Below, piece after piece: positions 41,649 through 52,596 of a stretch of 64,000 nt of DNA. Each line of letters opens with the position of its first letter. Positions within the stretch are counted from its first letter, which is position 1. Under the pieces are notes generated by a model that searched no databases, was not told the DNA's origin, and was given only the letters and a program-made list of their open reading frames with translations. A program made the translations under genes and the position numbers. The stretch is from an uncultured cyanobacterium. Lineage in GTDB: Bacteria; Cyanobacteriota; Cyanobacteriia; PCC-9006; JAAUQQ01. Location: the NCBI GenBank assembly GCA_963718615.1, contig OY970368.1, forward strand, positions 672,001 through 736,000. Reading direction: 5' to 3'.

Positions 41649-41715
41649 GGTTACAACTGCTTCACGTTTCTTTTCGGTTGATTTAAATTAGAACGACAAA
41701 TTTTCTATGCCAGTC

Positions 41716-41748
41716 TGGCTCCTACTCCATGGGTAGGAGCCATTTATT
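41716..41748 (+). terminator. Intrinsic terminator
   Basis: TGGCTCCTAC-TCCATGG-GTAGGAGCCA followed by TTTATT. Confidence 0.65.
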
Positions 41749-42265
41749 GTTCATGGTATAGATTTACTGTGATGAAGCTCTACCTCTAGTCCTAAAGCCT
41801 GCACGGTTTTTGCACGGTCCATCCGGCAAGGTAGAACTATCCACGCTCCACCTGGATACTCACCCATGGTTTCATCGCCCCTCACCTCGACAACGCCAAT
41901 TGCTAAAACTCCAGTTTCTGTTTCCCCCACCTCTGGAAGCCAGCGAAATCATTTGATTAGCAAACTAGCTGATTGCATTGAGTCCGTTTGGCAGCAATTT
42001 CTTGATCTTTCGCCCTACGAAATTCCTGACGATTTAGGATACGTCGAAGGCACCCTGGAAGGCGATCGCCTCGTCATCGAAAACCGCTGTTATCAAACCC
42101 CTCAATTCCGCAAACTCCATCTTGAGCTGGCGAGGGTGAGCGATCGCCTCCATATCCTTCACTGCGTCATGTTCCCCCGAATTACCTACCAGAAATTTCC
42201 GCAGTGCTCCGCCTATACCCGAAGGGTTAGGGGGTGGTGAAGCGGAGCGCGACCGCAGGAAGCAA

Positions 42266-42679
42266 CTAATCAATCTCGGCCTGCTGTTGAATATATTGCC
42301 TGAGAACAGATATGGGGGCTCCGCCACAAGAAATAATGCAGTAGGAACGACTCCAAAAAATCGGCTTATCTTGGTAGATCTGATTAAGGTGTTCACCAAA
42401 CTCTTTCCTGAGTAACCGACTAGAGACAGTTTTTAAGTTGTTCACCAACTTTGACGGCTGAACCTTGGGATTGATCGAGATAAGAAGATGAACATGGTCA
42501 GCCTCCCCATTAAACTCAAGCAGGTCGCCATCCCACTTAACGAGCGTCTGTGCGAATATCTCTCGCATCCTTTCCAGCATGGGTTTCGTGATGCACTTTC
42601 GTCGGTACTTAGTGCAAGCGACTAAGTGGAATTGAAGATTATAGGAGCAGTGGTGGAGGGTGTTTAACTGTTGCGACAT
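42266..42679 (-). CDS. tnpA: IS200/IS605 Y1 transposase
   Basis: HLVACTKYRR, DHVH, RQYIQQQ. Confidence 0.95.
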   Translation of the reverse strand: MSQQLNTLHHCSYNLQFHLVACTKYRRKCITKPMLERMREIFAQTLVKWDGDLLEFNGEADHVHLLISINPKVQPSKLVNNLKTVSSRLLRKEFGEHLNQIYQDKPIFWSRSYCIISCGGAPISVLRQYIQQQAEID

Positions 42680-42706
42680 TGTGGGCGACTAAGCTAGAAT
42701 AAGACC

Positions 42707-43894
42707 ATGCTAACACTGACCTATGAGTACAAGCTGAAGCCAACCGCTCAGCAGATTGAGGAGCTAGAAAATAGCTTGGATGTTTGCCGAAAAGTCTGGA
42801 ATTATGCCCTCAAAGAGCGCAAGGACTGGATTGCTTCAAGAAAGTGTCCTATCAATGCTTGCTCAATTCGGGGTGAGTACATCATGGCGGCGGATGCTCC
42901 CTATCCCGGTTTTGCTCACCAGTGCAAATCCCTGACCCAAGCCAAGAAGACTAATCCTGAGCTCAAGTCTGTCAATGCTCAATCCCTTCAGCAAGTGCTG
43001 AAGACTTTAGAAAAGGCATTCAAGGATAGGGCAGAGCGGGGGTTTGGGTTTCCTCGGTTTAAGAAGTCGGGGCAAATGAAGTCGTTTCTGTTTCCTCAAT
43101 TGGGCAAGACTCCACTGGGAGACGGGTGGGTAAATCTTCCCAGTATCGGGGAAATTGCTATCCGGCAGTCTCGGCCCTATCCCGAAGGCTTCCAGGTGAA
43201 GCAGGCCAGGATAGTGAAGCGGGCGTCAGGGTTTTATGTGATGCTCTGTTTTCAAGCGGAGTTGTCCATTCCCGATGTGCCATTGGTAGGTCAGTGTGTG
43301 GGTGTCGATGTGGGGTTGGAATATTTCCTGTCAGCCTCGGATGGGCTGCAAGTTCATCGTCCTCGGTTTTTCGTTGACCTGCAAAGCGAGCTGAAATTGC
43401 TGCAACGCAGACTCAAGAAAAAGGTGCTGGGGTCGAAGAACTGGAAAAAGCTTCAACTCAAGAGCGCAAAGCTGCATGAACGAATCAGCAACACTCGCAA
43501 GGATTTTCACTTCAAGATTGCTCATCTGCTCTGTGACCGGAGCGATGTGATTGTGGTGGAGAATCTGAATCTAGTGGGCTTGTCCCGTGGCATGTTGGGT
43601 AAACACATGCTCGATGCTGGCTTGGGACAGTTCCTGAATCAGATTTTGCCCTGGGTGTGTTTTAAGCGAGGGAAGGGGTATCTAAAAGTGGATGCCCGTG
43701 GAACCTCTCAGCAATGCCCTGATTGTGGTCATGCTGTCAAAAAGACGCTTTCAGACCGTTGGCATAATTGTCCCCATTGCGGGTCATCGATGCCTCGGGA
43801 CATTGCGAGTGCAATTGTAATCAAACAAAGAGCCGTGGGGCGCACGGTTCAAGAAAAGGCTTGTGGAGACGGTCTAGCGGGGGTGGCGGCATGA
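42707..43894 (+). CDS. tnpB: RNA-guided endonuclease TnpB
   Basis: GVDVG / VENL / RDIAS RuvC residues and CPDC..CPHC zinc ribbon. Confidence 0.95.
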   Translation: MLTLTYEYKLKPTAQQIEELENSLDVCRKVWNYALKERKDWIASRKCPINACSIRGEYIMAADAPYPGFAHQCKSLTQAKKTNPELKSVNAQSLQQVLKTLEKAFKDRAERGFGFPRFKKSGQMKSFLFPQLGKTPLGDGWVNLPSIGEIAIRQSRPYPEGFQVKQARIVKRASGFYVMLCFQAELSIPDVPLVGQCVGVDVGLEYFLSASDGLQVHRPRFFVDLQSELKLLQRRLKKKVLGSKNWKKLQLKSAKLHERISNTRKDFHFKIAHLLCDRSDVIVVENLNLVGLSRGMLGKHMLDAGLGQFLNQILPWVCFKRGKGYLKVDARGTSQQCPDCGHAVKKTLSDRWHNCPHCGSSMPRDIASAIVIKQRAVGRTVQEKACGDGLAGVAA

Positions 43895-44619
43895 ATGTGC
43901 TGTTATCTAGCCAAGAGTCTGTGAAACAGGAATCTCCATCCATATCGCCTAGCGATTGGGTGGATGAGCGTCAAGATTTGCCAATCTTTGGGGCCGATCT
44001 CGTGGGCCAAACCCATTCTATTAGTGCTGCGATCGCCGATCTTTCACCGGTCCAGAGCGATCGCCAGCTTCCCGCAGCCTATCAAACCGCCCTCAAATCA
44101 CTGCCCGAGATACAGTTTTCTGAACCTCGTGCCTTGCCAGACTGGGGAGATATTTTTTCTGATTTCTGTTTATTTGTGCGGCCTCAAACCCCGGAGGAAG
44201 AAGCGTTGTTCTTTGAGCGAGTCCGGAGCTTTTTAAGCTTACATTGCCAAATCGCAACCGCCTCAAAACCGCTGCAATCGCAATCGGCGATCGCCCCTAT
44301 CCAAGCCGGACACCAACATTACTGCGATCGCCAGCGCCAAAACGACAAAACCCGCCGCGTCCTCGTAATGTCCTTTGGAGAAGCCTGGGCCGATCGCTAT
44401 ATGAAAACCATGCTGTTTGACGATCCAGCCTCTTGAGAGAGATTTATAGATTTTTAAGTCCGTTTTCAAGACCTTAATATTCTCCAATCTTGACGCTAAC
44501 CCAAGGATAAGAAGAATTAAGGAACAAAGAATAGGGAAATCAAGGGCGAACCATACCAAATTTTCTTTGAACTTGCCTTTTCTTATTGTTTTTTCACATT
44601 TTCCGAAACAATTGTTTAC

Positions 44620-44650
44620 TGCTTTTACAGAACTTTATCTTCTATAATTG
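44620..44650 (+). promoter_or_regulatory. Probable cpc operon promoter
   Basis: TATAAT at 44643-44648 in an AT-rich stretch ~370 nt upstream of cpcB. Confidence 0.5.
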
Positions 44651-45015
44651 CACAAGAATTGCACAATCAGGTTGCTTTAATCGAAATCAGGTTCAAATGG
44701 CACTTAGTTCTTGACTGTCTCCAGACAAGAATTAACCGCTAGGCTCCGCTGGCGGAGTTTCGATTCTGCCAGTGTCGTCTTAGCGGGGCTACCGCGAACA
44801 CCTGGGTCCGACAAAGGGATTTGTTGTCCAGATTTCAGCATAACCATTGCCGAGCGACCTTGAATTAAAGCAAGATTTCATCTTTCCAATCGAGTCCAAA
44901 GGCTTGATCGCTGATTGCTCGGTTGGAGGGTGTTTTCATCAAGAGCGTTCGCGGATTGAGCGGATTAAATCAATATCCACCCTTTTTAATAAGGTTTATT
45001 AGGAGAACAACAAGA

Positions 45016-45534
45016 ATGCTAGACGCTTTCACCAAGGTAGTTGCCCAAGCTGATGCTCGCGGCGAATTCATCAGCGGTAGCCAAATCGATGCTCTTAACG
45101 CCATGGTTGCCGATGGCAGCAAGCGTATGGACGCTGTCAACCGGATGACCGGAAATGCCTCCACGATCGTTGCAAACGCAGCTCGTGCACTGTTTGCTGA
45201 GCAGCCCGCTCTGATCGCTCCCGGTGGTAATGCTTACACCAACCGCCGCATGGCTGCTTGTCTGCGGGACATGGAAATCATCCTGCGCTACGTCACCTAC
45301 GCAACCTTTGCAGGTGATTCTTCCGTACTAGAAGATCGCTGCCTCAATGGCCTGCGTGAAACCTACCTCGCTCTGGGCGTTCCCGGCGCGTCTGTTTCAG
45401 AAGGCGTGAACAAAATGAAGGCTGCCGCTCTCGACATCGTCAACGACCGTAACGGTATCACCCCTGGCGATTGCAGCGCTTTGGTTTCCGAAATCGGTGG
45501 CTATTTCGATCGCGCTGCTGCTGCGGTCGGCTAA
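45016..45534 (+). CDS. cpcB: Phycocyanin beta subunit
   Basis: [32 protein letters not shown]; 172 aa; AGGAG RBS. Confidence 0.98.
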
Positions 45535-45601
45535 ACGTCACATCGATTTAGATGCTGACTTTAACTTTCGAATTTTTGTAAAACATCGAGACATACCATC
45601 A

Positions 45602-46090
45602 ATGAAAACCCCTCTTACTGAAGCCGTCGCTGCTGCTGATTCCCAAGGCCGTTTCCTGAGCAGCACCGAAATGCAAGCTGCCTTTGGCCGTTTTCGCCAA
45701 GCCACTTCTGGTCTGCAAGCCGCTAAAGCACTGAGCGACAAGGCTGACTCCTTGGTCAACGGCGCAGCTCAAGCCGTTTATGGCAAGTTCCCCTACACCA
45801 CCCAAATGCAGGGCAACAACTTCGCAGCGTCTTCGGAAGGCAAAGCGAAGTGCGCTCGTGACATCGGTTACTACCTCCGCATGGTCACCTACTGCCTCGT
45901 TGCAGGCGGCACTGGCCCCATGGATGAGTACCTGCTTGCCGGTCTCGACGAGATCAACAAGACCTTTGATCTCTCCCCCAGCTGGTATGTTGAAGCGCTG
46001 AAGTACATCAAAGCAAACCATGGTTTGTCTGGTGACCCCGCTGTTGAAGCGAACTCCTACCTCGACTACGCCATCAACGCACTGAGCTAA
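45602..46090 (+). CDS. cpcA: Phycocyanin alpha subunit
   Basis: [29 protein letters not shown]; 162 aa. Confidence 0.98.
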
Positions 46091-46135
46091 TCTCTCATTG
46101 CCTGTTCTTGAGATTTTCTTGAATTAGTGAGAGTT

Positions 46136-46197
46136 GAGTTCGGGACAGTTTGAGATGGCTTTGATCGGCGATCTCTTGCTGTTCCGACTCGTTTTTT
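46136..46197 (+). terminator. Stem-loop after cpcA (partial terminator or stabiliser)
   Basis: GAGTTCGGGACAG..CTGTTCCGACTC followed by a T-run. Confidence 0.6.
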
Positions 46198-46248
46198 AGA
46201 GCGTTTTTTGTGTTGCGGTTAATTGTGTTGCAATTAAGGAGTTAAACC

Positions 46249-47067
46249 ATGTCTAGTTTGACGGCTGCCCGCCAGCTTGGGTTTGAGCCCTATGCCAACA
46301 CCTCTCCGGTCGAGTTGCGGGAAAAACAGACCGAAGAAGATGTGCAGGCAGTCATCCAAGCTTCCTACCGGCAGATCTTCGGTAATGCACATTTGATGGA
46401 AATGGAGCGGCTTAGCAGTGCTGAGTCGCTTCTTCGTCAAGGGAACATTCGCGTTCGAGACTTTGTGCGACAGCTTGCCCTGTCGGAGCTCTATCGCAAC
46501 AAGTTCTTTTACTCAACCCCCCAGGTTCGGTTCATTGAGCTGAACTTTAAGCATTTGCTGGGTCGCGCTCCCTATGATGAGTCTGAGATCGCTTACCATG
46601 TTGATCTCTACGTCAATGAAGGCTATGAAGCAGAGATCGATTCTTATATTGATTCTGCCGAATACGAGGATAGCTTTGGAGATTCGGTCGTCCCCTATTA
46701 TCGGGGTTTTGAAAGCCAGAACGGTCAAAAAACTGTAGGTTTCAACCGAATGTTTCAGCTGTATCGCGGTTATGCCAATAGCGATCGCTCCCAGGGTAAA
46801 AACAAATCTGCTTGGCTTACGCAATCCTTGGCTATGAATCTGGCCAATGCGATTCAAACGCCGGAGTTTGGTAAGGCGCTGGCGGGTACAACCAAGGGCG
46901 ATCGCAGTAAGTTCTTCCGGGTTCAGGTCAACCAAGGGAGCAGCAAAGGTGCAGCCCAGCGTCGTCGCAGCATGGGCGAATATGTGGTGACCTATGAGCA
47001 GCTCTCGCCAACGCTTCAGCGTTTAAATCAGCGCGGCGCGCGCATCGTCAGCATTTCACCCGCTTAG
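46249..47067 (+). CDS. cpcC: Phycocyanin rod linker (~30 kDa type)
   Basis: [14 protein letters not shown] linker domain plus CpcD-like C-terminus. Confidence 0.92.
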
Positions 47068-47159
47068 CTTAGGCCAAATGAGCTCAATTTGGCGCGCTCA
47101 CGAAGGGATAAACCATTCCCTTCCCCTCATCTTTCCATTTTGTCCAAGGAGAAGAATCT

Positions 47160-48029
47160 GTGGCCATCACAACCGGAGCATCCCGTTTAGGAACTAGTGC
47201 ATTTAGCAATGCTAGCCCAACGGAATTGCGCCCTAACTTTACCCAAGCTGAAGCTCAAAGTGTGATTAATGCCGTTTATCGGCATGTGCTCGGCAATGAC
47301 TATGTCATGAGCAGTGAGCGTCTTGTTGCACTGGAATCGTTGCTCTGTAACGGACAACTCACCGTGCGAGAATTTGTACGGGCCGTGGCGAAGTCTGATC
47401 TGTACAAAACGAAGTTTCTCTATCCTCATTTTCAAACGCGGGTGATTGAGCTCAACTTCAAACATTTGTTGGGTCGCGCTCCCTACGATGAATCTGAGGT
47501 CATTGAGCACCTCGATCGCTATCAAACTGAAGGGTTTGAAGCCGATATCGATTCCTACATTAATTCCGCTGAATATGAGGAAAACTTTGGCGATGCCATT
47601 GTGCCTTATTATCGCGGTTTTACCACTCAAACCTCGCAGAAAATGGCTGGGTTTACGCGCATGTTCCGTCTCTATCGGGGCTACGCCAATAGCGATCGCG
47701 CCCAGATCGGCGGTGCATCTTCGCGTCTCGCCACCGAATTGGCTCAAAATAGCGTTTCCCCCATCGTTGCGCCCTCGGGCGGCAGTTCTGGCTTCGCTTA
47801 CAAGCCTTCGGAACGCAATACGGCACCCAAGCGAGCCTTTGGCCAATCTTCGTTTAATGCGTCGAAGAATCTTTATCGGATTGAGGTGGCAGGTCTTGCC
47901 CTGTCTCGCTATCCGAAAGTGCGTCGTAGCAATCGGGAATTTATCGTTCCCTACGAACAGCTATCCAGCACATTGCAAAAGATTCAGCGGTTAGGTGGCA
48001 AAGTCGCCAGTGTTACACTTGCTCAATAG
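47160..48029 (+). CDS. cpcC: Phycocyanin rod linker (~33 kDa type)
   Basis: [11 protein letters not shown] start, linker domain, [12 protein letters not shown] end. Confidence 0.93.
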
Positions 48030-48051
48030 ATTATTATTCGGGAGGATTGCT

Positions 48052-48300
48052 ATGTTAGGACAATCGACATTGACAAATGCAGCCAGTTCCTCAGCAAACA
48101 ATCGCTTGTTTGTTTATGAGGTCGAAGGGTTGCGGCAAAATGATCAAACGGAGCAATCCGCTCATGCGATTCGCCAAAGCGGAACGGTTTCCATTGCGGT
48201 TCCCTATAGTCGAATGAATGAAGAAATGCGTCGGATTAGTCGTCTTGGTGGCAAGATTGTAGCGATCCGGTCGGCGGATGCGGCTGCGACTGAATCCTAG
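48052..48300 (+). CDS. cpcD: Rod-capping linker
   Basis: MLGQS..FVYEVEGLRQ..VPYSRMNEEMRRISRLGGKIV; GGAGG RBS. Confidence 0.95.
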   Translation: MLGQSTLTNAASSSANNRLFVYEVEGLRQNDQTEQSAHAIRQSGTVSIAVPYSRMNEEMRRISRLGGKIVAIRSADAAATES

Positions 48301-48453: not shown

Positions 48454-48906
48454 TTAGCCCAAACCAAACTCCTGCATCGCCGGTAAAAAGTTATGATTTT
48501 CATGACTCGGACGACTCAGTTTGATCAGGGCAAAGCGCTGTAGCGGCGTTAACTGAATCCAATCAGAGAGCGATAGGGTCAAGTCAAATTCCTGTGCCTT
48601 CTGCAAAACAGCTGGGGGCACTTGGGCGGTATCTAGCCAAGCAGGATGGGCATCAATCACTAAGGTTTTAGCGGGTGACCCCGTTTGTTCTGTGATTAGG
48701 GTTTGTAGATAATCTCGATAGGCAGCAGAGGTTTCCGCCGTTTCACAAGGCTGGTCAATGAGCATTTGTTTTTGAGCCGTGGTAAACCCATTCCAATGGG
48801 AAAGTTTGAGTTTCACACCACAGGTATCAAGATTCAGTCGAACCTGCATGGGAATGCAGCGAAGCGACTCGATAAACTCAGTTTCAAACTTAAAAAATTG
48901 CGCCAT
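48454..48906 (-). CDS. narM: Nitrate reductase-associated protein
   Basis: [38 protein letters not shown]; overlaps narB end. Confidence 0.9.
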
Positions 48907-51136
48907 ACTTTTGCTCGATTGTAAGCGATCGCACCAAACCGAACAACAGGCCCGTCTCCACCCCCAGCCCTTTCGAGTCCTCCACCTCAATCGGCAATAG
49001 CTGTACCGCACAAGCCTTCAACTCCGGCTGCAACGAGATCGGGCACACTTCGCCATGGGTTAAGGCATTGGCTTCCGCATCGTTTGCCCATAAAAAACCC
49101 CAATGCATCGGCACAAACACCATACCAGGGCAAATCGCTCTGGTCACCAACAAGGGAAGTCGGGCGGTGCCCCGTTTCGAGCGAACCTCGATCACCTGAT
49201 TCGCCCTAAATCCTAACCGCTCCGCATCCCGAGGATGGATTTCAAGCTGGGCTTGGGGATGCAGCTTGCGAATCTTTTCAATATGCCCTGTTCGGGTCTG
49301 GGTATGCCAATGACCATACAACCGTCCCGTTGTCAGAACAAAGGGATACTCTGAATCCGGCGGTTCGGCCAAGCCCTTAGCATGGAACGCAACAAATCTA
49401 GCGCGTCCACTGGGCGTGTAAAAGCGATGGTCCGTATAGAGACGCTTATTCAACTTTTCTGCTGCCGTTGCCTCCGTTTCTATCTGGGGCAACGGCCATT
49501 GCAGTGGCCCCGTAGCTAACCGCTCATGACTCATGCCGCTCATGTCACAGGGACGACCCGCCGTGAGCGCGACAAATTCAGCATGAACCTCTGCCGCCGT
49601 GGTTGCTTCAAACTGGGCCGCAAAACCCAACCGTCGTCCCACCTCCGCAAAAATTTGCCAATCCGCTTTGGCCTGACCTCGCGGTCGCTTAAAGGCCTTG
49701 CACAGCGTCACGACCCGTTCAGAATTAGTCATCACCCCCGTCTTTTCGCCCCACTGGGCCGCAGGCAAAAGCACATGGGCAAACTCGGTGGTTTCGGTGG
49801 GGAAATAGGCATCCTGACAAATAGTAAAGGGCGAATTGCGCAGCGCTTTCTTCGTTCGCTCTAAGTCCGGCATACTCACCGCCGGATTCGTTGCCGCCAC
49901 CCAAAACACCTCCACCTCGCCTCGCTCTAAGGCCAAAATCATCTCCCAAGCAGCCAATCCCGGCTGGGGTGAAATTGAGTTTGCTGGCAATTGCCAAGCT
50001 TGTTCTAGGACCCGGCGGTCCTCGGCGTTTTGAACCAAGCGATACCCTGGCAAAATATGGGACAGTCCCCCGGCTTCGCGACCGCCCATGGCATTGGGTT
50101 GCCCTGTCAACGAAAACGGTCCAGCCCCTGGACGACCCATATTGCCGGTCAGCAAATGGAGGTTGATAATGCTGCAAACCTTGGCGGTCCCTTCGCTAGA
50201 CTGATTAACCCCCATAGACCAGAGCGATAAAACCCGTTTTGATTTAGCCCAGAGTCGGGCGGCGGCGGCGAGATGCTGGATTGAGATCCCACAGACTTCT
50301 GCAACGACGTCCGGTGGATAATGCTGAACCGTTTCAGCATAGGATTTGAAGTCTTCAGTACAACTCTCAATGTAGCCGTAGTCAATTTTGCCCCACTTTA
50401 ACAGCAAATGCGCAATGCCATTAAGGAGCGTGATATCGGTTCCCGGCTGAATGGCTAAATGTAGCGTCGCTGCTTCAGCGGTTTTTGTACGACGCGGGTC
50501 TACGACAATTAAAGTCGCCGTTCGACGATTTTTCTTCAGATGTTTGTGCAAGCGATTAAAAATAATCGGGTGACAGTCTGCGGTGTTGGTGCCGATGAGA
50601 AAAGCACAGTCGGTTTCTTCTAAATCGTCATAGCAACAGGGGGGGCCATCCGCGCCAAAGTTTTGGATATATCCGGCCACGGCTGAAGACATGCAGAGCC
50701 GAGAATTAGCATCAAAATTATTCGTACCCAGACAGCCCTTGATCAGTTTTTGCGCTGTGTAATAATCCTCAGTTTGGAATTGGCCTGAGCCATACATACA
50801 AATTGAATCGGGGCCTTTTGTGGCGATCGCCCGCCGAATTTTCGACACAACCAAACCATAAGCCTCTTCCCATTCCACTTGCCGAAAGGGTTGATCCAAC
50901 GATTCCCTCACCATTGGGTAGAGCAAACGGCTTTTGTCCAATGCTTCTCCCACCGTTGCCCCTTTAACACAGACGAGGCCCTTGCTAGAAGGATGGGTGC
51001 GATCGCCCCGCGCTTGCCAAAGGGGGGTTCCTTCCGAGTCTCGGTTGATCGCTTTTCCCGGCTGAGCTGGGGGCACCACTTCAAGACCACAGCCTACGCC
51101 ACAGTAAGGACATTGGGTTTTCGTAAACTCAGCCAT
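48890..51136 (-). CDS. narB: Ferredoxin-nitrate reductase
   Basis: [32 protein letters not shown] molybdopterin motifs. Confidence 0.96.
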
Positions 51137-51285: not shown

Positions 51286-52596
51286 CTAAGTCCACTCTTT
51301 TAAAGCAAATGCTACTCCTGCAAACCATTGCTCCGATGCTTGTTCACCCGGCTCTTGCGATGCTTGAAGCGCTTGAAGACGCTCTTTTCCGCTGTAGATA
51401 TCTAGACGCTTGAGAGCAGTTAGGACATGCCATCGTACCCCTACATGGGGAATAGCAAGATATGTGACCAAAGGATCAAAGGCGATCGCCTGGGAAAGTT
51501 GACCGAGACTGTGGGCGATCGCCTGCTGAAGCTGTATGGTCCCCTGCTGCTGAACGGGGATTAAAACCGCCAGCAAAATCTCTGTCGCTTGTACCTTTAG
51601 GGACGGAGAGGGAGGGGCAGCATCTTCCACTCGACCCAAAACTTGAATGATTTCTAAGGCAAGTCGTGCTGCTCCAGGATCGGTTTTGAGGTGACCCACC
51701 CGTCTCACAAGCTGCCGTTGCAAGATTTGCAATCCTAGGCCTGAATGGCTCCAGCCCAAGGCACGGATAACCTGGACGAACAGCCGTTCTGGGACAGGGA
51801 AAGCCCCGTGAGGCGGACGAGCAGCGGGGTCCGCTCTGCACAAAAGTTGCTCTAGAGGCATCAGGGCTGCAGCGGTACCCAGACGACCCAGAACCATGGC
51901 CGCTTGTTCCGCAATCTCCAGATTGCCGTCGCCCAAATGCTCCTCCAAAACAGGGATTAACTCTAGGCTTTGAGTCTGAGGATCCAGTGCGGCTAAGCGT
52001 GAACCCAGTCCTCGCAATGCGGCTAGCCTGACAGGCGATTCGTCATCCTGGAGCGACTGGATCAAGATCGAATCAATGGGGCGATCGCGAAATCCGCTCA
52101 AGGCTTCTACCGCCGCTGCCCGCACTGAGGGATTGGGGTCTTGGGCCACCTCCAGCAACAGCGCCATTGCCTCCGGTAAATACAATTGCGCGAGGGCCTG
52201 TACCGCTAATAGTCGCGTTTCTGATGCGTTAAGCAAGGCTTGCAAGGGGGGAATCGCTAGGCGATCGCTTTCAATCAACGCCATTGCCGCCACAGAAGCC
52301 AACTCGGGTTGCTCCGCTTGAGACACTAAATCGGCGAGGATGGCGATCGCTCTAGGGTGTTTGAGTTCTCCAAGTATCCGCGCAATAAACCAACATAATT
52401 CTGCATCCTCTGCCTCTGTCTCCAGCAACATCACCAGCTTCGGTAAAATTTCAACCCCATACCCGATGAGTTGCTTGGCAACGTCCCATCGCACCTGGAA
52501 ATCCCCTTGCAATAATTTCTCAATGAGCCTTGCGACCTGGGGCTCATCCCGAATCGGTGGCTGAAAAGATAAGGAAACAGAAGATAGATCAGTCAT
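51286..52596 (-). CDS. nirB: HEAT-repeat protein, NirB-like
   Basis: PBS-lyase-type HEAT repeats; divergent from nirA (cyanobacterial nirB context). Confidence 0.7.
   Translation of the reverse strand: MTDLSSVSLSFQPPIRDEPQVARLIEKLLQGDFQVRWDVAKQLIGYGVEILPKLVMLLETEAEDAELCWFIARILGELKHPRAIAILADLVSQAEQPELASVAAMALIESDRLAIPPLQALLNASETRLLAVQALAQLYLPEAMALLLEVAQDPNPSVRAAAVEALSGFRDRPIDSILIQSLQDDESPVRLAALRGLGSRLAALDPQTQSLELIPVLEEHLGDGNLEIAEQAAMVLGRLGTAAALMPLEQLLCRADPAARPPHGAFPVPERLFVQVIRALGWSHSGLGLQILQRQLVRRVGHLKTDPGAARLALEIIQVLGRVEDAAPPSPSLKVQATEILLAVLIPVQQQGTIQLQQAIAHSLGQLSQAIAFDPLVTYLAIPHVGVRWHVLTALKRLDIYSGKERLQALQASQEPGEQASEQWFAGVAFALKEWT

Follow-up and report, generated by a model that had tools for sequence, protein, structure and literature searches.

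The DNA analysed (the window, 64,000 nucleotides; positions 672,001 to 736,000 of contig OY970368.1, assembly GCA_963718615.1) belongs to an uncultured cyanobacterium whose genome is one closed contig of 6.1 Mb. In the window, a pcyA gene (pcyA2) lies upstream of a phycocyanin operon and is interrupted by an insertion sequence (IS). The features of the locus are as follows (window coordinates):

41799-41816, + strand: direct repeat resembling an L box (CTGCACG-GTTT-TTGCACG, 3 mismatches to the consensus), 49 nt 5' of the pcyA2 ATG
41866-42189, + strand: pcyA2 5' half, 108 codons, ending ...FPRITY
42190-43974: IS200/IS605 element of 1785 bp, inserted in pcyA2
42190-42265, + strand: left end of the IS, with the guide tetranucleotide AGTG (42203-42206) and an imperfect subterminal hairpin, conserved in 6 copies
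42266-42679, - strand: tnpA, Y1 HUH transposase of 137 aa, divergent from tnpB and antisense to pcyA2
42707-43894, + strand: tnpB, RNA-guided nuclease family, 395 aa, co-oriented with pcyA2 and cpcBA
43832-43974, + strand: right end and presumed omega-RNA scaffold, with GAAT (43930-43933), a hairpin (43935-43964) and the terminal TCAA (43971-43974)
43975-43990, + strand: presumed 16-nt guide GATTTGCCAATCTTTG, with which the pcyA2 3' half begins, positioned by the ISDra2 rule
43975-44436, + strand: pcyA2 3' half, 153 codons plus stop, beginning DLPIFGADLVG
44648-44665, + strand: perfect L box TTGCACA-AGAA-TTGCACA, 351 nt upstream of cpcB
45016-48300, + strand: cpcB, cpcA, two cpcC-type rod linkers and cpcD (cpc2-like operon), intact by tblastn and open reading frames (ORFs), with PBS_linker_poly and CpcD domains

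Anatomy of the insertion in pcyA2

The junctions were located by sequence inspection. On the left, CGAATTACCTAC runs up to 42189 and is followed by the element start CAGAAATTTC; on the right, the element end GAGCGTCAA at 43974 is followed by GATTTGCCAATCTTTG. An earlier reading of the window, made from the sequence only, had described a 1785-bp element splitting pcyA between codons, just upstream of an intact cpcBA, and both points were confirmed: the inserted block is 42190-43974, the gene is split exactly between codons (...RITY/DLPIF...) with no residue lost or duplicated, and pcyA2 ends 580 nt upstream of cpcBA, with the cpcB start at 45016. The ORF of the 5' half reads on into the IS for a further 16 codons, with its stop at 42240. 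Being interrupted by 1785 bp, pcyA2 is not an uninterrupted expressible gene.

The two halves belong to one PcyA protein. The 5' half matched Pfam Fe_bilin_red (1.3e-21) and covered positions 6-93 of the NCBIfam model NF002760 (120.4 bits), of which the 3' half covered positions 94-242 (207 bits, cut-off 206); the pebA and pebB models scored far below the PcyA model on both. The halves were collinear with the solved Nostoc PcyA 2g18 (residues 14-102 and 103-252), and the segments of the presumed catalytic region, including FGADLV, were identical or conservatively replaced in the alignment. We take Glu76, His88 and Asp105 (Synechocystis numbering) to be the catalytic residues of PcyA.

The tnpA product matched Pfam Y1_Tnp (2.9e-40) and NCBIfam transpos_IS200 (132 bits, cut-off 55). 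When aligned to the TnpA of IS608 (residues 8-134, E = 9e-22), its H62/H64 and Y129 fell on the HUH motif and Y127. TnpB matched guided_TnpB (257.6 bits, cut-off 100) and carried OrfB_IS605, Cas12f1-like_TNB and HTH domains. Aligned to ISDra2 TnpB (residues 71-377, E = 1.7e-28), its RuvC residues D201/E285/D365 corresponded to D191/E278/D361, and both CxxC pairs were kept. The earlier description of the TnpA HUH/Tyr and TnpB RuvC residues as intact agrees with these alignments, and both proteins are predicted to be active. Divergent tnpA and tnpB genes are the IS605 arrangement; in IS608 the two genes are co-oriented, in contrast to the divergent pair found here.

The left flank of the element is CTAC (42186-42189), the last four bases of the pcyA2 5' half. 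This tetranucleotide is the target of the transposase and, by analogy with related elements, presumably also the TAM of the element's TnpB. At the left end, AGTG immediately precedes CTCCGC, a possible pairing partner of GCGGAG; the DNA fold of this hairpin is weak and ambiguous (-14.1 kcal/mol, z = -1.55), and the motif CGCAGTGCTCCGCC is conserved in three relatives of the element (L045, L051 and L044). At the right end, GAAT stands one base 5' of a clear DNA hairpin (z = -2.55), with its foot 10 nt before the end of the element, TCAA. The CTAC flank, the TCAA end and the IS608-type tetranucleotides AGTG and GAAT, all named in the earlier reading, were thus found in place, the tetranucleotides beside subterminal hairpins of which the left one is weak.

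The element resembles IS608/IS605 of Helicobacter pylori in its Y1 HUH TnpA and TnpB, in the lack of target duplication and in its insertion 3' of a tetranucleotide. It also shares with IS608 the right end TCAA, the 10-nt distance from the hairpin foot and, less clearly at the weak left hairpin, the placing of 4-nt guides 5' of the subterminal hairpins (IS608 values as given in the available part of PMC3201880). It differs in the target (CTAC, TTAC in IS608), in the left guide, which has changed to match the target (AGTG, AAAG in IS608), and in the distance of the left cleavage site from the presumed hairpin foot (17 nt, 19 nt in IS608).

Copies of the element and the presumed guide

The genome contains six intact full-length copies of the element: the pcyA2 copy and 5 others, 96-98% identical. 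The further copies match element positions 1-1785 or 3-1785, which confirms the boundaries. All six lie 3' of CTAC and end in TCAA; the tnpB ORF is intact and the ORF covering tnpA is open in every copy. Among the variable codons of tnpB, 59 show synonymous changes only and 24 change the residue, a pattern suggestive of purifying selection. Element positions 1643-1785 form the most conserved stretch among the copies, with 4 variable columns versus 92 in the tnpB region.

Related elements in other cyanobacterial genomes have the CTAC target and the GAGCGTCAA end too. Their left end was readable in L044, L045, L048/L049 and L051, and their right end in L043, L044, L045 and L051; the 4 distinct insertion sites in these genomes are also 3' of CTAC, and the assignment of CTAC as target and TAM is drawn from these 6 + 4 insertion sites. 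Judged by its sequence, the element is a member of an active-looking IS200/IS605 family (tnpA plus tnpB type), a kind already known.

The pcyA2 copy differs from its nearest genomic copy at 32 positions and carries 5 private changes; the insertion in pcyA2 therefore did not arise by a recent jump from any copy that the genome still has. The element would have entered pcyA2, 3' of CTAC, by the single-strand "peel and paste" route. The cumulative GC skew of the genome, examined to see whether the active strand of the element is the lagging-strand template, was noisy and gave no clear origin or terminus.

In ISDra2, the guide is formed by about 16 nt of right-end flank, and the donor joint (TAM plus right-end flank) is the designed target of TnpB, according to the available parts of PMC8612924 and, for the donor joint, of bioRxiv 10.1101/2023.03.14.532601. 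The present element resembles ISDra2 and the Geobacillus IS elements in taking its presumed guide from the right-end flank and in the identity of TAM and transposase target (Karvelis 2021, PMC8612924; Meers 2023, bioRxiv 10.1101/2023.03.14.532601, as far as available). The scarless donor joint would likewise recreate the target, and the RuvC D/E/D residues and the zinc finger are conserved. The right-end RNA would carry the pcyA2 flank as guide, as in every such element, and TnpB would cut the scarless excision product, CTAC + GATTTGCC. The cut empty site would then be repaired from an IS-bearing copy of the chromosome, which would favour retention.

The 16-nt guide has no second exact match in the genome. 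Among sites next to CTAC, none in the whole genome comes within 3 mismatches of it, and the sole near-match has 4. The second pcyA of the genome (pcyA1, below) was considered as an off-target and rejected, its homologous site being CTAT followed by 6/16 mismatches. A consensus fold of the right end from 9 sequences showed compensatory change in 10 of 40 pairs. An Rfam scan of 41700-44700 (E up to 1) matched no named omega-RNA family; its snoRNA match (17 bits, gathering score 39) was attributed to chance.

The sequence-only reading had drawn attention to a guide aimed at the repaired gene. The match itself stands, in that a scarless excision would bring CTAC and the 16 nt back together, but it does not set this insertion apart: such a match is built into how the IS605/TnpB family works and is found for every IS200/IS605 insertion. 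A TnpB guide that matches the repaired host gene should not, in general, be read as special.

A second pcyA and a conserved L-box/cpc module

An intact second pcyA (pcyA1; G000 C1:2987422-2988195) encodes 257 aa and scores 356.4 bits against the PcyA equivalog model (cut-off 206). It is unlinked to pcyA2, and the genome also carries pebA and pebB. Since pcyA1 is present, the disrupted pcyA2 is not the sole source of phycocyanobilin; the premise that the element had split an essential or near-essential gene fails here, and the simpler alternative named beside it, a second pcyA, turned out to be correct. The pcyA tree places pcyA2 beside the cpc-linked pcyA of three genomes of the same family (100/96 support) and separates it from pcyA1: by its sequence, it is an old accessory paralog conserved in the family. 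All 19 other pcyA loci fetched carry an uninterrupted gene. In the open-access literature searched, no paper was found on two pcyA paralogs or on an IS inside pcyA. Under red light, pcyA1 may not fully compensate.

For the regulatory repeats, TTGCACA-N4-TTGCACA was taken as the L-box consensus. The L box at 44648-44665 is its only perfect match on both strands of the whole 6.1-Mb genome (estimated chance expectation about 0.05), and the genome has three cpcBA operons. The repeat upstream of pcyA2 is presumed to be an RcaC-type activator site. Four relatives (L024, L025, L038 and L039) have a comparable repeat with 0-2 mismatches to the L box upstream of their cpc-linked pcyA and a perfect or 1-mismatch L box between pcyA2 and cpcB. 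L boxes thus stand at both positions in 4/4 cpc-linked pcyA loci, and the order L box, pcyA2, L box, cpcBA is a conserved module in these genomes.

The available parts of PMC8256508 and PMC5737509 describe phosphorylated RcaC as an L-box-binding activator of pcyA and cpc2. By analogy, the module of L boxes, pcyA2 and the cpcBA-linker operon is probably a red-light-induced regulon of the RcaC type, as in type III chromatic acclimation. It resembles the type III regulon of Fremyella diplosiphon and Synechococcus sp. PCC 7335 in that pcyA and a cpcBA-linker operon each stand behind an L-box-type repeat, and in the presence of pebAB and further phycobiliprotein operons. It differs in that the pcyA presumed to be regulated is a second paralog beside a constitutive-looking pcyA1. 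A family-conserved second pcyA heading an L-box cpc operon bears on the balance of bilin and apoprotein in chromatic acclimation.

We consider it likely that the locus records the knock-out of an accessory pcyA2 by a CTAC-targeting IS200/IS605 element, tolerated via pcyA1. The disrupted gene would be an accessory phycocyanobilin:ferredoxin oxidoreductase gene heading the L-box/cpcBA module, and its clean knock-out would be tolerated because the unlinked, intact pcyA1 supplies phycocyanobilin. The phenotype would be mild or absent. The cpcBA genes retain their own L box and promoter region 3' of the element. Read in this manner, the locus shows nothing out of the ordinary: an element of a known kind has inserted into a gene that is redundant.

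The orientation of the genes also allows a regulatory side effect, in which transcription from the light-regulated pcyA2 promoter would continue into the element, expressing tnpB and the omega RNA and running antisense to tnpA, so that retention of this copy becomes light-dependent or cpc2 expression is altered. The co-orientation of tnpB with pcyA2, the antisense tnpA, the L-box-like repeat upstream of pcyA2 and the lack of any terminator-like site on the + strand of 41743-44735 are in its favour. The argument is, however, purely positional: the promoter and terminator scans did not exceed shuffled expectation (4 versus a mean of 3.5, and 3 versus 3.4), and cpcB has its own perfect L box 3' of the IS. 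We give this explanation very little credence. There is an equally slim chance that, with this copy lying in sense orientation behind a promoter activated by red light (RcaC/L-box), light colour sets the ratio of TnpB and omega RNA (sense read-through) to TnpA (antisense) and makes retention of the insertion light-conditional in a polyploid filament. If true, the locus would act as a reversible IS605 "switch" found in nature and coupled to the environment; filled and empty alleles would occur side by side in the population, and the extra bilin for inducible phycocyanin would be light-conditional.

The empty allele and the nature of the insertion

Public metagenome runs were searched as Logan contigs. 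The best runs, X1 and X2, contained shares of 0.41 and 0.26 of the sampled words, and none reached half. In X1, one contig of 439 nt carries a precise empty site with 438/439 identity: 42189 is joined directly to 43975, with flanks of 142 + 297 nt (0 + 1 mismatches) and a joint with neither shared nor extra bases. The insertion accordingly left no target-site duplication. X1 and X2 also contain the flanks of two other genomic copies of the IS. No contig joining pcyA2 to the IS was seen in X1, and runs X3 and X4 held the IS only, with foreign flanks and no pcyA2 sequence.

An environmental sample carries an empty allele that is nearly identical, which makes the insertion polymorphic at the strain level; this empty allele is a population polymorphism or the ancestral allele. 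The contig is single, of low depth, from a community sample and not from the same cell line, and it is no evidence for heteroplasmy or for switching within a cell. The earlier suggestion to look for the empty junction was therefore productive in one metagenome contig, as evidence at the population level and not of within-cell switching. The empty allele may be ancestral or a product of excision.

An uninterrupted pcyA2 could also be the true majority allele, the assembler having misplaced the IS or chosen a minor haplotype. The element is a 6-copy repeat, and the only read-level evidence, from X1, shows the empty allele and gave no contig linking pcyA2 to the IS. Against such an artefact, the genome is a closed 6.1-Mb contig and the junctions are base-exact at a proper CTAC target; the pcyA2 copy has 5 private substitutions and differs from each of the others at 32 positions or more, so it is not a collapsed or misplaced duplicate. 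Moreover, rare variants drop out of contigs, and X1 is a low-depth community sample. We judge an artefact to be highly improbable.

The sequence-only reading had proposed a reversible pigment switch, in which IS-bearing and excised pcyA2 alleles coexist in polyploid cells, and excision against homing sets the phycocyanobilin supply. All the parts needed are present and look intact, excision would restore the pcyA2 reading frame, and the empty allele exists in nature at near-identity. In the available part of Meers 2023 (bioRxiv 10.1101/2023.03.14.532601), a mini-transposon interrupting lacZ acts as an excision/retention colour switch, which demonstrates the principle. However, the second intact pcyA removes the selective tension, the IS-bearing allele stands alone in the assembly, and the empty allele is known from a single low-depth metagenome contig that is not of the same cell line. 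The logic also holds equally for each of the six copies and for IS605 insertions in general, and nothing singles out the pcyA2 copy as a regulated switch. The proposal is not supported, and we regard it as very improbable.

Under the preferred reading, a tolerated knock-out of accessory pcyA2, the locus is a clean natural example of an IS605/TnpB element known with its target motif and presumed guide, and with its site in both the filled and a near-identical empty state. Under red light, the disruption of pcyA2 might show as a visible change of pigment, and the locus offers a convenient system for measuring TnpA excision versus TnpB homing in a polyploid cyanobacterium.

The interrupted pcyA2 and its IS200/IS605 element

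The cpc-linked pcyA (pcyA2) is split exactly, with zero bases lost or duplicated, by a 1785-bp IS200/IS605 insert (IS, 42190-43974) that contains two ORFs. The left junction (42189/42190) reads ...AATTACCTAC/CAGAAATTTCCGCAGTGCTCCGCC... and the right junction (43974/43975) reads ...GGATGAGCGTCAA/GATTTGCCAATCTTTGGGGCC... in the window, where the locus is laid out as follows:

41866-42189: 5' piece of pcyA2, 108 aa; positions 6-93 of the PcyA equivalog model NF002760
42266-42679, minus strand: tnpA, 137 codons; Pfam Y1_Tnp 2.9e-40, NCBIfam IS200/IS605 transposase 132 bits
42707-43894, plus strand: tnpB, 395 codons; NCBIfam RNA-guided endonuclease TnpB 257.6 bits
43975-44436: 3' piece of pcyA2, 153 aa; NF002760 positions 94-242
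45016: ATG of cpcB, followed in the downstream cpc operon by cpcA, two rod-linker genes and cpcD
48890-51136, minus strand: molybdopterin oxidoreductase gene, downstream of the cpc operon
51286-52596, minus strand: HEAT-repeat, phycobilisome-lyase-like gene, downstream of the cpc operon

The two pieces align with residues 14-102 and 103-252 of the solved Nostoc PcyA (2g18), the break falling at FPR..Y/DLP.FG.DLVG, and the two motifs that we take to carry the catalytic Glu, His and Asp are conserved in these alignments. Both transposon proteins look catalytically intact: TnpA keeps the HUH histidines H62 and H64 and places Y129 opposite the catalytic Y127 of IS608 TnpA (2a6m), and TnpB (further Pfam domains: OrfB_IS605, Cas12f1-like_TNB, HTH_OrfB_IS605) places D201/E285/D365 opposite D191/E278/D361 of ISDra2 TnpB (8bf8/8exa), with both CxxC pairs found in the same alignment.

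In the IS608 layout, the right-end hairpin foot lies 10 nt from cleavage, the terminus is TCAA and the left-end distance is 19 nt (PMC3201880). The right end here is IS608-like (10 nt from hairpin foot to cleavage point, terminus TCAA), with GAAT one base 5' of the hairpin, in line with that layout. At the left end, AGTG stands directly 5' of a possible stem, with 17 nt to the cleavage point as against 19 nt in IS608, and the hairpin is statistically weak (z = -1.55). The anatomy described in the sequence-only reading (1785-bp IS splitting pcyA between codons, intact tnpA and tnpB residues, CTAC left flank and TCAA right end, cpcBA downstream) was confirmed.

The second pcyA and the cpc module

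The same reading had treated pcyA as essential or nearly so, naming another pcyA as a simpler alternative to a pigment switch. Searching the entire source genome (one 6,095,823-bp contig, C1, with the window at C1:672001-736000) for Pfam Fe_bilin_red gave five matches: the two pcyA2 halves and three intact genes.

C1:2987422-2988195: pcyA1, intact, 257 aa; PcyA equivalog model 356.4 bits (cut-off 206)
C1, ~3.993 Mb: pebA and pebB, intact tandem pair; 358.9 and 425.6 bits, respectively

The intact pcyA1 refutes the essential-gene premise and bears out the alternative. When 30 related genomes were surveyed with the C-terminal half of PcyA2, 29 had a match and four (G001, G004, G007, G018) had two PcyA-type genes, the copy closest to pcyA2 being directly upstream of cpcBA in each; all other pcyA loci fetched (19/19) were uninterrupted. 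In a tree of C-terminal halves, three same-family genomes contribute the cpc-linked copies that cluster with pcyA2 (support 100/96), and pcyA1 sits apart from them beside the other family copy (100/100); as judged from these groupings, pcyA2 is an old accessory paralog.

The source genome has three cpcBA operons, starting at C1:717016, 3984663 (minus) and 4850039 (minus). CpcA of the second is identical to that of the window and its CpcB shares 92% identity; for the third, identity is 71-77%, and a more distant phycobiliprotein pair lies at C1:3662113.

A single site in the genome, 351 nt upstream of the window cpcB, is a perfect match to TTGCACA-N4-TTGCACA, which we take to be the L-box consensus; an L box with 3 mismatches precedes the pcyA2 ATG by 49 nt, and L boxes occur at both positions in 4/4 cpc-linked relatives. 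Two extra near-perfect L boxes suggest a wider RcaC-type regulon:

C1:4850387, minus strand: TTGCATG-AATT-TTGCACA, 348 nt upstream of the third cpcBA operon
C1:3989907, minus strand: TTGCACA-GTTA-CTGCACA, ~218 nt upstream of a rod-linker gene cluster near pebAB

Phosphorylated RcaC is described as the protein that binds L boxes and switches on pcyA and cpc2 during type III chromatic acclimation (PMC8256508; PMC5737509). From this literature, the cpc linkage and the L boxes at both positions, pcyA2 is read as a putative light-inducible bilin-synthase copy of the RcaC/L-box (type III chromatic acclimation) regulon. The best reading, which we favour with good confidence, is that an active IS605-family element has knocked out an accessory pcyA, probably one induced by red light, and that the knock-out is strain-level and tolerated. 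A bolder possibility, which we consider highly improbable, is that transcription from the pcyA2 promoter in red light runs on into tnpB and the omega RNA, antisense to tnpA, and so ties retention of the IS copy to light colour.

The presumed TnpB guide and the empty site

According to Karvelis et al. (2021, PMC8612924) and Meers et al. (10.1101/2023.03.14.532601), the TnpB guide is ~16 nt of DNA flanking the IS right end and the TAM is the transposase target, so that scarless excision re-forms the TnpB target, and the element is regained when recombination follows a TnpB cut; a mini-transposon interrupting lacZ served Meers et al. as a colour read-out. The claim that the guide is aimed at the repaired gene agrees with these mechanics but confers no special status on pcyA2, because it is true of all six full-length copies in this genome and of any such insertion. 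With generic mechanics and a refuted premise, the interpretation given in the sequence-only reading is only partly supported. The presumed 16-mer guide occurs once in the assembled genome, adjoining the IS right end, and no CTAC-adjacent site with up to 3 mismatches to it was found there. The homologous site in pcyA1 has CTAT followed by a stretch with 6/16 mismatches, so pcyA1 would not be a TnpB target.

Public runs, each covering less than half of the stretch, were searched as assembled contigs. In the community sample X1, a 439-nt contig (depth 3.9) matches 42048-42189 with 0 mismatches and then 43975-44271 with 1 mismatch, skipping exactly 1785 bp at an unambiguous joint. X1 and a second run, X2, also contain IS ends whose flanking sequence is identical to that at two other copies in the source genome (3.02 Mb and 1.61 Mb), which indicates that a very close strain is present. 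Given the empty-site contig and this strain, the pcyA2 insertion is polymorphic among near-identical genomes; the empty allele is either ancestral or excised. The precise empty junction sought by the sequence-only reading thus exists, but because contigs carry no allele fractions it does not document a switch inside a cell.

Copies, relatives and derivatives of the element

A DNA search of the source genome with the 1785-bp IS gave 17 matches: six full-length (96-100% identical, ends alike) and the others fragments. In each of the six full-length copies, the tnpA and tnpB frames are open, the terminus is TCAA and CTAC stands directly 5' (at one locus, where the left end is duplicated, 5' of the outer one). 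The copies differ pairwise at 26-81 positions, and variable tnpB codons (59 synonymous only versus 24 residue-changing) point to selection for a working protein. The IS is a real, multi-copy element and probably active. The pcyA2 copy carries 5 changes of its own and differs from every other copy in the genome at 32 or more positions, which argues against both misassembly and a very recent jump from a still-present copy.

Conservation is highest in the final 143 nt, and the terminal bases have a fold common to relatives, with compensatory change in 10/40 predicted pairs (9 sequences); the omega RNA would be expected in this folded part, and Rfam gave no family match for the IS region. Other cyanobacterial genome records contain close relatives of the IS (TnpB identity 85-91%), which, wherever their ends are readable, share the CTAC target and GAGCGTCAA terminus. 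Right ends of a second, related family (L020, C1:389878-390021; L021, C1:43516-43659) are 71-72% identical over the final 143 nt, with motifs CAGGAATC and GAGCGTCAA in common and compensatory changes in the hairpin.

Several variants were observed. At L014 (C1:4881651-4881730), the first 80 nt of an IS copy are repeated in tandem ahead of it, with CTAC before the outer left end; L012 and L019 (C1:770912-772287) form a tnpA-less derivative that retains the left end and positions 506-1751 (92% identical); and L013 and L015-L018 are decayed or deleted solo left-end and right-end fragments. The copies at C1:3063138-3064921 and 3021060-3022843 are variants: one has a 1-bp deletion that alters the last TnpB residues (400 aa instead of 395), and another an altered start (first bases CG not CA), the longest listed tnpA-strand frame being 190 codons from TTG, not 137. 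In run X3, a 902-nt contig (record 16, depth 45.7) is an internally deleted IS that joins 42186-42236 to 43214-43974, is devoid of tnpA and of the 5' portion of tnpB, and has flanks unlike those of the window; another organism may thus carry the IS in a non-autonomous, MITE-like form.
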